62,118 nt of DNA from an uncultured Gammaproteobacteria bacterium (GTDB lineage Bacteria; Patescibacteriota; Patescibacteriia; UBA1558; S5-K13). The stretch lies in the NCBI GenBank assembly GCA_964640635.1, contig CAZXFD010000005.1:1-62118 (forward strand), written 5' to 3'. This document shows, one piece after another, positions 16,386 through 59,414 of the stretch. Within the stretch, counting starts at the first letter, position 1, and the number at the start of each line of letters is the position of its first letter. A program made the translations under genes and the position numbers. The notes under the pieces were generated by a model, which was not told the origin of the DNA, ran no database searches, and saw only the letters and a list, made by a program, of their open reading frames with translations.

Positions 16386-16460
16386 TGGTACCCTCGCCAG
16401 GAATCGAACCTGGATCCTATGCTCCGCAAGCACATATTCTATCCGTTGAACTACGAGGGC
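16386..16460 (-). tRNA. tRNA-Arg(GCG)
   Basis: GCCCTCG/CGAGGGT acceptor, TGTGC-TTGCGGA-GCATA anticodon arm, GGTTCGATTCC T-arm, encoded CCA. Confidence 0.95.
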
Positions 16461-17030: not shown

Positions 17031-17126
17031 ATTTTTTATTATACAATAATTATACATTTTTATGTAAAGATTGACAATGACATTTTTTTTAGGTAAAATT
17101 TTTATACCCTTGTAAAATATGGGTTT

Positions 17127-17216
<90 letters not shown>

Positions 17217-17587
17217 CACTAAGAATATTCACTTAAAAATGAATATTTTTTATTTATTATGAAAAAATATCAAACAATTTTGGGAGCGACGCAACTGCTT
17301 GCGTCGCGTAGGGATGAGAACGTCGGAGCGATGTCGAGCTAACAAGCGAGACCGCGAGACGGTGCCTAGACTAATCTGAGCGACGGCGAGGATTAAGTCG
17401 AAGGAGAATCCCCGCCTACCGGCAGGCAGGCCTCCCTCTCCGCCATTCGATTCGTCCTCATTTCATTCGGACTCACTCATGGTCTTCGACCACTCTCGAT
17501 TAAATAGCACGTTAATCGAATGTCCCGAGCGAAGTCGAGGGACAACATCCATAAGAATATTCACTTAAAAATGAATATTTTTTATTT
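17217..17587 (+). mobile_element. Non-coding tRNA-anchored element with duplicated tRNA 3' end and duplicated terminator
   Basis: CCTCCCTCTCCGCCA repeated at 17431-17445; 36-bp terminator at 17220-17255 and 17552-17587; GC-rich palindromic interior. Confidence 0.65.
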
Positions 17588-58913: not shown

Positions 58914-59112
58914 GATAGATTTTGTATGTGCAGATTTTTTTCTTTTCCACCCTTTTCTAGAAAAGGGTGGAGCCTAAAAGTCGCGAGCAGTACAAGAATT
59001 TTAAAATTTATCATTTCGTCAAACTAAAACTTCAAAATGTTACCTATCGGTAACTTGAAGTTTTTTGACGTTTGACTTCATTCAAATTTTATAAAATTCT
59101 TATAAGTTCGCA
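58914..59112. mobile_element. 199-bp palindrome plus long-hairpin element, copy A
   Basis: 78/79 identity with 60185-60263; 24-bp palindrome CCACCCTTTTCTAGAAAAGGGTGG; 129-nt hairpin closed by GCGAGC/GTTCGC. Confidence 0.7.
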
Positions 59113-59257
59113 AACAAATAACATAGTATACGTTTTATTAATAACATTATAATATAATAAGTGTTTGAGCGTGGATTTCGGTTTCGCTTTTCTCGAGTCT
59201 AAGCGATCTCGGAGTCGAATACAAGACACTCAATTCTAATTAAAAATGTTTCTCTCG

Positions 59258-59338
59258 TGCCCTTCGGCAAGCTCAGGGCATTCGTCTCGCTTTTATATGT
59301 AAGTGGCGGAACGCCATGAGCGAGCGAAGCGAGTCGAA
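59258..59338 (-). mobile_element. Non-coding element abutting tRNA-Val CCA end
   Basis: TTCGACTCGCTTCGCTCGCTCATGG...CGAATGCCCTGAGC..CGAAGGGCA, homologous to 17446-17544. Confidence 0.65.
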
Positions 59339-59414
59339 TGGTGGGCATGAGAGGATTTGAACCTCTGACTTTCACGATGTGAACGTGACACTCTAACCAC
59401 TGAGTTACATGCCC
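59339..59414 (-). tRNA. tRNA-Val(CAC)
   Basis: GGGCATG/CATGCCC acceptor, TCACG-TTCACAT-CGTGA anticodon arm, TTCAAAT T-loop, encoded CCA. Confidence 0.95.

Follow-up and report, generated by a model that had tools for sequence, protein, structure and literature searches.

A widespread, previously undescribed family of folded RNAs without a match in Rfam starts at the first base (+1) past the 3' ends of tRNA and tmRNA genes of diverse bacteria and is read from the same strand as these genes. Its core consists of two hairpins, P1 and Pc, with base +1 used in the opening pair of P1. Most copies additionally carry an optional middle domain between the two P1 strands, made up of a variable hairpin (Pa), a second hairpin (Pb) and a variable stretch. 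The explanation that we tentatively prefer, while giving it somewhat less than an even chance, is that the element is a co-transcribed 3'-trailer RNA and that an endonucleolytic cut at +1 makes the tRNA or tmRNA 3' end, with an enzyme of the RNase Z/BN type as the likeliest agent.

Element copies in the window and their surroundings

The window, i.e. the whole stretch of DNA analysed (62,118 nucleotides), contains three tRNA genes, each with an encoded CCA (ARAGORN, Rfam), and two copies of the element. Its relevant features are:

16386-16460, minus strand: tRNA-Arg, CCA encoded (ARAGORN and Rfam)
17127-17216, plus strand: tRNA-Ser(gct), CCA encoded (ARAGORN and Rfam)
17220-17255, plus strand: terminator-like hairpin with T-run (B1), a 36/36 direct repeat of 17552-17587
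17257-17430, plus strand: stretch 'x', G+C-rich and hairpin-rich (fold z = -2.0; genome 31% G+C)
17431-17445, plus strand: 15-mer CCTCCCTCTCCGCCA, identical to the last 15 nt of tRNA-Ser(gct) (17202-17216)
17446-17544, plus strand: element copy 2, 99 nt, directly 3' of the 15-nt tRNA-Ser fragment
17446-17452 paired with 17514-17520, plus strand: P1 of copy 2
17454-17457 paired with 17469-17472, plus strand: hairpin Pa of copy 2
17480-17492, plus strand: hairpin Pb of copy 2
17521-17544, plus strand: UG and hairpin Pc of copy 2
17552-17587, plus strand: terminator-like hairpin B2, which closes the unit of x, tRNA fragment and element
59160-59245 (approximate), minus strand: degenerate second 3' half of the element (AAUUGAGUG UCUUG ... 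AAGCGAAACCGAAAUCC), split by the module-2 hairpin
59192-59219, minus strand: module-2 hairpin TTCGACTCCGAGATCGCTTAGACTCGAG, 28 nt, a separate small repeat
59258-59338, minus strand: element copy 1, 81 nt, G+C-rich, starting at CCA+1 of tRNA-Val
59258-59280, minus strand: UG and hairpin Pc of copy 1 (CCCU GAGCUUGCCGA AGGG CA)
59304-59316, minus strand: hairpin Pb of copy 1 (UGGCG-UUC-CGCCA)
59328-59338 (5' strand) and 59281-59291 (3' strand), minus strand: P1 of copy 1
59339-59414, minus strand: tRNA-Val(cac), CCA encoded (ARAGORN; Rfam tRNA, 73.2 bits), the 5' partner of copy 1

Copy 1 reads TTCGACTCGCTTCGCTCGCTCATGGCGTTCCGCCACT...CGAATGCCCTGAGCTTGCCGAAGGGCA on the minus strand from the first base past the CCA of tRNA-Val. 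An earlier, sequence-only reading of this DNA had proposed that both copies start at CCA+1 and have complementary ends. Both claims held, as the +1 start turned out to be the rule in the family and the complementary ends form helix P1 in either copy. A covariance model (R1), built on 25 copies, scored copy 1 at 70.9 bits (E 4e-12) and copy 2 at 93.9 bits (E 1e-16), with E-values that are rough, and a scan with this model gave no third copy in the window. Inside the window alone, the shared patterns were not significant, with 13-25 of 100 shuffles also yielding two matches. Since the window-only similarity was not compelling, other genomes were searched, and with these added the family is unambiguous.

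At the tRNA-Val locus, the tRNA is followed by the element and then by the degenerate second 3' half carrying the module-2 hairpin. The layout of 59160-59245 (flank, module, flank) is the same as in L116, L139 and L040, and R1 matches in this segment were at noise level only. The sequence-only reading had likened 59160-59229 on the minus strand to 17334-17354. This resemblance is weak by itself (alignment score 19 versus 14.9 +/- 2.1 for shuffles, 29 of 500 of which reach it), but the segment does belong to the locus as a degenerate second 3' half with a separate module. In a relative from a groundwater metagenome (run X6), position 59118 is joined to 59225, without the 106 bases 59119-59224, and the element is kept 3' of tRNA-Val despite this gap. 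Module 2 was found in five independent occurrences, namely in the window and at the following sites:

L016, 1502-1529: module-2 copy
L040, 1745-1785: module-2 copy
L116, 2108-2148: module-2 copy
L139, 182-222: module-2 copy

In four of the five occurrences, module 2 (TTCGRCTCYGAG...CTYAGRCTCGAR) stands after ...GAGUGUCCYG of the Pc 5' strand and, to judge from these sites, may prefer this spot in Pc for insertion. The neighbouring A+T-rich intergenic region 59000-59150, which includes a hairpin at 59014-59073, has the look of a further repeated or conserved element, as several different contigs per run in unrelated metagenomes matched it at a depth of up to ~230. The motif TTATAAGYTCGCAAA is present at ~59105 and again at ~59478.

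The order at the tRNA-Ser locus is tRNA, hairpin B1, x, 15-nt tRNA-Ser duplicate, element and B2. Here, tRNA-Ser(gct) itself, which is preceded by a promoter-like TTGACA-17-TAAAAT at 17071-17099, is directly followed by the A+T-rich terminator-like hairpin and not by the element. A weak promoter-like site lies at 17233-17260, near the start of x, and x contains a weak Pc-like module at ~17373-17395 (R1, 8.2 bits within 17333-17395). The identification of x as a divergent tmRNA or a known small RNA was rejected, as it was supported by neither ARAGORN nor Rfam. We cannot say whether x and the tRNA-Ser fragment form a working RNA with a tRNA-like end or are debris.

Family, position and fold of the element

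Pattern 1 (CTCATRGNNTTCNNCYACTN{10,40}CGAATG), which includes no tRNA sequence, was used to scan 185,579 species genomes and returned 33 loci, which is about the chance expectation. In 22 of these, the two NN dinucleotides of the pattern are complementary, and these are the true element loci; all of their copies lie directly after ...CCA, apart from one extra partial tandem copy in L007. The hosts of the pattern-1 loci are labelled in the database records as Patescibacteria/Parcubacteria, uncultured Gammaproteobacteria, Armatimonadetes and unclassified bacteria. R1 added six copies missed by pattern 1, five of them at +1 of a tRNA and the sixth at +1 of an RNA identified by Rfam as tmRNA (112 bits). 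Pattern 2 (TCGARTGYCCYGAGN{5,35}TCGARGGRCA), which covers only the 3' part of the element, gave at least 120 loci in a metagenome collection, and R1 yielded 82 + 39 sense-strand matches on the corresponding contigs, among the matches listed. In all, ~150 further copies were obtained among the matches listed, from Patescibacteria and other, mostly uncultured bacteria; together with the blocks shared by the two window copies, they confirm the multi-copy family proposed earlier. Both patterns were derived from the element, and distant variants are under-sampled.

Searches of 50,697 phage records, 72,556 plasmid records and 2.9 million viral contigs gave no BLAST or pattern match, and a phage or plasmid origin was rejected on these grounds. 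When the window and 18 loci were compared with Rfam 15 (4227 models), only tRNA, tmRNA and rRNA reached the gathering score; at E <= 10, four element copies gave tRNA, tmRNA, rRNA and noise only. A literature search retrieved the theta ribozymes and no paper describing the element motif.

The +1 position was imposed by neither search pattern. Nevertheless, CCA stands just upstream in 104 of the 121 R1 matches listed (73/82 and 31/39); position -1 is A in 77/81 and 32/39, and position -2 is nearly always C, again among the matches listed. Around half of the 201 tRNA and tmRNA genes in all loci carry the element at +1, a share that is no genome-wide frequency because the loci were chosen for having the element. 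The carriers comprise 17 tRNA isotypes and 15 of 16 tmRNA genes (both counts among the matches listed), the latter being standard one-piece genes. The element is often placed between two tRNAs of one array (Ala-element-Val, Tyr-element-Thr, Ile-element-Val). A flank scan with a covariance model had been suggested as a check by the sequence-only reading; in the loci retrieved here, almost all copies listed lie at tRNA or tmRNA ends.

In genes that do not encode CCA (tmRNA, tRNA-Ala, Tyr, Arg and Leu), the element directly follows the discriminator A73, and only A73 RNAs are found among the CCA-less carriers listed. Such cases occur on G+C-rich contigs (examples within L037-L156 are L112, L049, L072, L113, L074 and L136), where tmRNA genes end in ...GGGGGUUCGACUCCCCC CGCCUCC A, with the element right after the discriminator A and no CCA encoded, tRNA-Ala in ...GGCUCC-A| and tRNA-Arg in ...GGGGGC-A|, each with the element next. 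The start after A76 where CCA is encoded, or after A73 where it is not, indicates that the element marks the encoded 3' end rather than the letters CCA. Of the proposal that targeting is independent of tRNA sequence, one part can therefore be kept, as almost any isotype or a tmRNA may stand upstream, while CCA as such is not the target. Two further ideas were dropped. CCA is not encoded only where the element is present, as it is encoded in 45/45 tRNA genes of the A+T-rich Patescibacteria genome loci; and an insertion into ...UCCA^CCA of tRNA-Ala or tmRNA genes should have left a CCA 3' of the element, where none is seen.

A few copies stand alone. Units consisting of a promoter-like TTGATT...TAGAAT, a 45-nt leader, the element and a terminator hairpin were found twice in L019 and once in L033:

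L019, 4600-4654: leader, directly followed by the element
L019, 6885-6937: leader, directly followed by the element
L033, 3505-3557: leader, directly followed by the element

The 45-nt leader is conserved and can be folded as a minihelix resembling an acceptor/T-arm that ends in ...AGCCC-G-CCA, without an ARAGORN tRNA call; on this folding, the units may be a tRNA-like mini-RNA gene. In L054, TATAAT is followed by a short leader ending in GCCA and then by the element.

In P1, the strand UUCGAC(UC) pairs with (GA)GUCGAA, with UUCGAC/GUCGAA as its core. An invariant UG separates P1 from Pc, which reads G-YCCY / GA / GC ... G(U)C / GA / RGGR-C, followed by a terminal A, and contains one or two tandem G-A motifs. 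Pb (CUCAU-GGNN-UUC-NNCC-ACU) is conserved, and its loop can hold an inserted hairpin. Minimal copies lack the middle domain and consist of P1 and Pc alone. In a MAFFT alignment, 96.9% of the cells are paired, and the observed values were reached by no shuffle. Among 83 model-aligned copies, for which pair counts lean towards the model, 97.4% were paired and both sides had changed in 13 of 18 pairs; the pair formed by base +1 was U-A in 56, C-G in 23, U-G in 3 and unpaired in 0 of the model-aligned copies. RNAalifold, run on an alignment not fitted to the model, returned the same helices and the base of Pa, with pair types GC 8, CG 7, UA 4 and AU 2 for the latter. One pair of Pc is U-G in 10/25 and 28/83 copies. 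As U-G corresponds to an A-C mismatch on the other strand, the folded strand is the tRNA-sense strand. An RNA on the opposite strand, to which a promoter-like plus-strand motif near 59105 and a single C>T variant had pointed, was rejected because U-G is frequent on the tRNA strand and model scores in the antisense direction are far lower. The core is constant in hosts from 31% to ~70% G+C, with variable parts that track host composition; this constancy, together with covariation that includes strand-specific G-U pairs, argues for a selected RNA structure and against a recently spreading DNA transposon. Judging from the conserved letters, the U of UG could pair with the terminal A of the element, so that its two ends would meet in a continuous stack (a nicked dumbbell), and the CA of the upstream RNA could fill the same UG slot; the bases concerned are invariant and hence show no covariation.

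Contigs from wastewater metatranscriptomes, derived from other organisms, span the junction between tRNA 3' end and element at a word depth of 60-100. The element is thus transcribed together with the tRNA in some molecules, and uncut junctions exist; these data are assembled contigs, which give no RNA ends. The window organism was present in wastewater DNA runs and in no RNA run among the public runs searched.

Candidate roles of the element

According to the preferred explanation, a conserved, folded 3' trailer would be made in one transcript with the preceding tRNA or tmRNA. Pc would stack on P1 and place the bond between tRNA and element exactly at the helix junction, with the terminal CA of the upstream RNA paired to UG. 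One endonucleolytic cut at the P1/Pc junction would then produce the exact tRNA or tmRNA 3' end in a single step, after which the terminal CA of the element itself would replace that of the upstream RNA. The likeliest agent would be an RNase Z/BN-type tRNA 3' endonuclease, able to cut after the discriminator or after CCA, and the element would be freed as a compact, exonuclease-resistant 'nicked dumbbell' RNA. Recombination or duplication would exchange copies among tRNA loci, which would make the family look like a miniature inverted-repeat transposable element (MITE).

The family, its position, strand, fold and breadth are observed, as is co-transcription in some molecules; the cut, the enzyme and the fate of the freed RNA are inferred. 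A cut at the P1/Pc junction is suggested by the way copies start precisely at +1, by the pairing of their first base and by the relation between CA and UG. On CCA-less precursors, RNase Z cuts after the discriminator, and for Thermotoga RNase Z and E. coli RNase BN the site lies past an encoded CCA; the element starts at just these two positions. An endonuclease is favoured by the tRNA-like leader kept in stand-alone copies, which fits a dependence on a tRNA-recognising enzyme, by the minimal copies, which are too plain for a typical ribozyme, and by the uncut junctions readily found in RNA. The same junctions also count against it, since they were not cut in the contigs. Moreover, the first bases of the trailer are paired in P1, although RNase Z usually calls for a trailer that is single-stranded, and the paired UCGA in P1 and the CA at -2/-1 are strict, which a ribozyme core or a DNA target would fit as well. 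Roughly one in two tRNAs of these loci goes without the element, so that it is not required for every tRNA, and copy 2 of the window follows a 15-nt tRNA fragment, with no tRNA to mature.

A serious, if unlikely, rival is that the element is itself a small catalytic RNA, whose candidate activity would cut or exchange the bond at its own first nucleotide. This could happen by plain self-cleavage or by attack of its own 3'-terminal A, giving a tRNA 3'-OH and a circular element. The scissile bond would lie at a helix junction amid the most conserved bases (the U1/C1 pair, UG, terminal CA and tandem G-A), the terminal A of the element would take the same UG-paired slot as that of the tRNA, and the upstream CA at -2/-1 matches the CA at the element 3' end, as seen at the tandem junction ...GGGACA|CUCGAC. 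Occurrence behind any tRNA and tmRNA would suit such an RNA, and theta ribozymes behind phage tRNAs provide a precedent (PMC10879173). The middle domain is, however, dispensable, which reduces minimal copies to two plain hairpins; no Rfam ribozyme model matched even at E <= 10; and where the next tRNA is close, copies lack the putative P2-like pairing to the 3' tail. A ribozyme independent of its leader would have no need of the tRNA-like leader that stand-alone copies retain, the junction-spanning contigs at depths of 60-100 speak for uncut RNA, and plain self-cleavage would put a 2',3'-cyclic phosphate on A76. In its most specific form, to which we give little credence, the element would be a new catalytic RNA class that matures tRNA and tmRNA 3' ends in cellular bacteria by a CA-for-CA exchange on the UG as guide, freeing tRNA-CCA-OH and closing a circular dumbbell; the reverse reaction onto 3' ends in CA would then account for the +1 position at many tRNA genes.

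Copies of the element turn over. Within one genome, copies behind different RNAs share Pa and the variable stretch (L023/L024, L005/L017, L026/L033, L040), and in two related genomes (L015 and L016) two element types, UUCGACU...CUCAUGG and CUCGAUU...CUCGUGG, have traded places between tRNA-Asp and tmRNA:

L015, 2370-2480: swapped copy
L015, 4260-4378: swapped copy
L016, 159-257: swapped copy
L016, 2273-2383: swapped copy

Copies also occur in tandem (L092, L007, L090) or linked to fragments, and Pc modules are nested in Pc in L004, L011, L026, L090, L120 and L149. Shared variable parts, swaps and nesting indicate that copies move or convert one another. In L133 and L144, 3' of tRNA-Pro, the Pc of one copy runs into a ~37-nt tandem repeat (GAGCCTGTGGTTCGATGGACTCACCACGGT...).

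The sequence-only reading had concluded from the window that the family is MITE-like. A non-autonomous DNA transposon (MITE/PATE, e.g. of the IS200/IS605 type) that inserts 3' of a CA-ending target and whose transposase is encoded elsewhere is a rather improbable explanation in our judgement. It would account for short, multi-copy sequences that carry a hairpin at either end, keep one orientation and have unduplicated flanks, for variable parts that are common within a genome and types exchanged between L015 and L016, for tandem, nested and fragment-linked copies, and for the presence of module 2 at the same Pc site in four loci; the left flank and the element both end in CA, like the target and right end of single-strand transposons. 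Yet a target of 2-4 bases occurs thousands of times per genome, and the copies are nearly confined to tRNA and tmRNA ends. No ORF-containing full-length version, for which the sequence-only reading had advised a search, and no tnpA (Y1) or tnpB between the same ends was found downstream of the 201 tRNA/tmRNA genes (~1 Mb of loci, among the matches listed), and the element is absent from the phage, plasmid and viral collections searched. The core is shared between phyla, the variable parts having drifted towards the G+C content of the host, and the covariation includes strand-specific G-U pairs. What remains of the MITE-like description is thus that copies turn over and nest. Inspection of 43 copies gave no target-site duplication, only ...CCA on the left and unrelated sequence on the right, and with these differing flanks a terminal-inverted-repeat MITE moved by a DDE transposase was discarded. 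A tyrosine-integrase island in the tRNA gene was likewise dismissed, as the 15-nt tRNA-Ser repeat bounds only 214 bp, which contain no plus-strand ORF of 40 aa or more, and more than 15 different tRNA types are used by the family.

It is quite improbable, finally, that the element acts as a small RNA with an independent function (e.g. protein binding) that borrows the upstream tRNA-like RNA as a 5'-end processing signal, with nothing gained by the tRNA. Such an RNA could explain why units of promoter, minihelix leader, element and terminator occur alone in L019 (twice) and L033, with a short GCCA leader in L054, why there are many copies per genome and why Pc contains tandem G-A motifs, which are typical of protein-binding sites. 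It has no known partner, however, and an RNA acting in trans needs no seat behind 15 of 16 tmRNAs or inside tRNA arrays (among the matches listed). As it would involve the same cut and the same product, it overlaps to a large extent with the preferred trailer explanation.

Comparison with known systems

IS200/IS605-derived miniature elements (PATEs) and REP/BIME sequences are short, hairpin-rich, multi-copy intergenic repeats that are oriented and lack target duplications. The element resembles them in these traits and in the similarity of its left flank and right end (CA); of the PATE traits, it has end hairpins, a fixed orientation, a short 5' motif and no target duplication. In contrast to PATEs, its copies are not spread over many short-target sites, as almost all follow a tRNA, a tmRNA or a tRNA-like leader. 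REPs are species-specific, whereas the core of the element is kept across phyla, shows RNA-type covariation and is tied to tRNA and tmRNA ends, with no transposase partner found.

The intervening segment of permuted (two-piece) tmRNA is comparable in that it starts directly past the CCA with which the acceptor piece ends and that tRNA-type processing removes it. It is followed by the coding piece, whereas none follows the element, and the Rfam permuted-tmRNA model matched across the junction of tRNA-Val and element at chance level (11.3 bits, E 3.9).

Among tRNA-linked small RNAs, plant tRNA-snoRNA genes, the tRNA-pre-miRNA units of MHV68 and MALAT1-mascRNA likewise combine a tRNA-like module and a second structured RNA in one transcript, and tRNA endonucleases set the shared end. 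These systems are eukaryotic or viral and have known functions, whereas the element is bacterial, involves a new partner RNA and has a predicted cleavage.

To our knowledge, tRNA 3'-end finishing in bacteria with very small genomes (e.g. the candidate phyla radiation) is poorly known, and the sole RNA element reported as dedicated to tRNA trailer removal is the phage-borne theta ribozyme. In our rating, the present element is a structured RNA devoted to the 3' trailer of tRNAs, chromosomal and distributed across distant bacterial groups. It would offer either a novel processing signal, a novel ribozyme or a mobile RNA of a new kind that seeks tRNA ends. For annotation, it explains G+C-rich 'islands' and tRNA-fragment duplicates beside tRNA genes in A+T-rich genomes.

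An HDV-like fold of the element was considered by assigning P1, P2, P3, P1.1 and P4 by hand and was rejected, because P2 and P3/L3 are not conserved. Only some copies have a CACGAG tail that could base-pair with CUCG, and it is absent where the next tRNA starts 13-16 nt past Pc (L024, L013, L059). The hairpin enclosed by the P1 strands, which minimal copies lack, contains either a loop of 3 nt or a large insert. On four element copies, the HDV-like model gave no match at gathering score or E <= 10, and the hammerhead, twister, twister-sister, pistol, hatchet and hairpin models of Rfam 15 gave none up to E = 10. Theta ribozymes are minimal HDV-like ribozymes behind phage tRNA genes, proposed to remove 3' trailers (Kienbeck et al. 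2024, PMC10879173); they occur in gut phages, in which CCA is encoded in only 4.5% of their tRNAs (PMC10879173). They form an HDV double pseudoknot, whereas the element has no conserved P2, P3/L3 or P1.1. Unlike them, the element is chromosomal, mostly located behind an encoded CCA and also found behind tmRNA. Both are folded RNAs directly 3' of a tRNA, are co-transcribed with it and have their own first nucleotide as the proposed processing site, which makes theta ribozymes the nearest functional analogue of the element.
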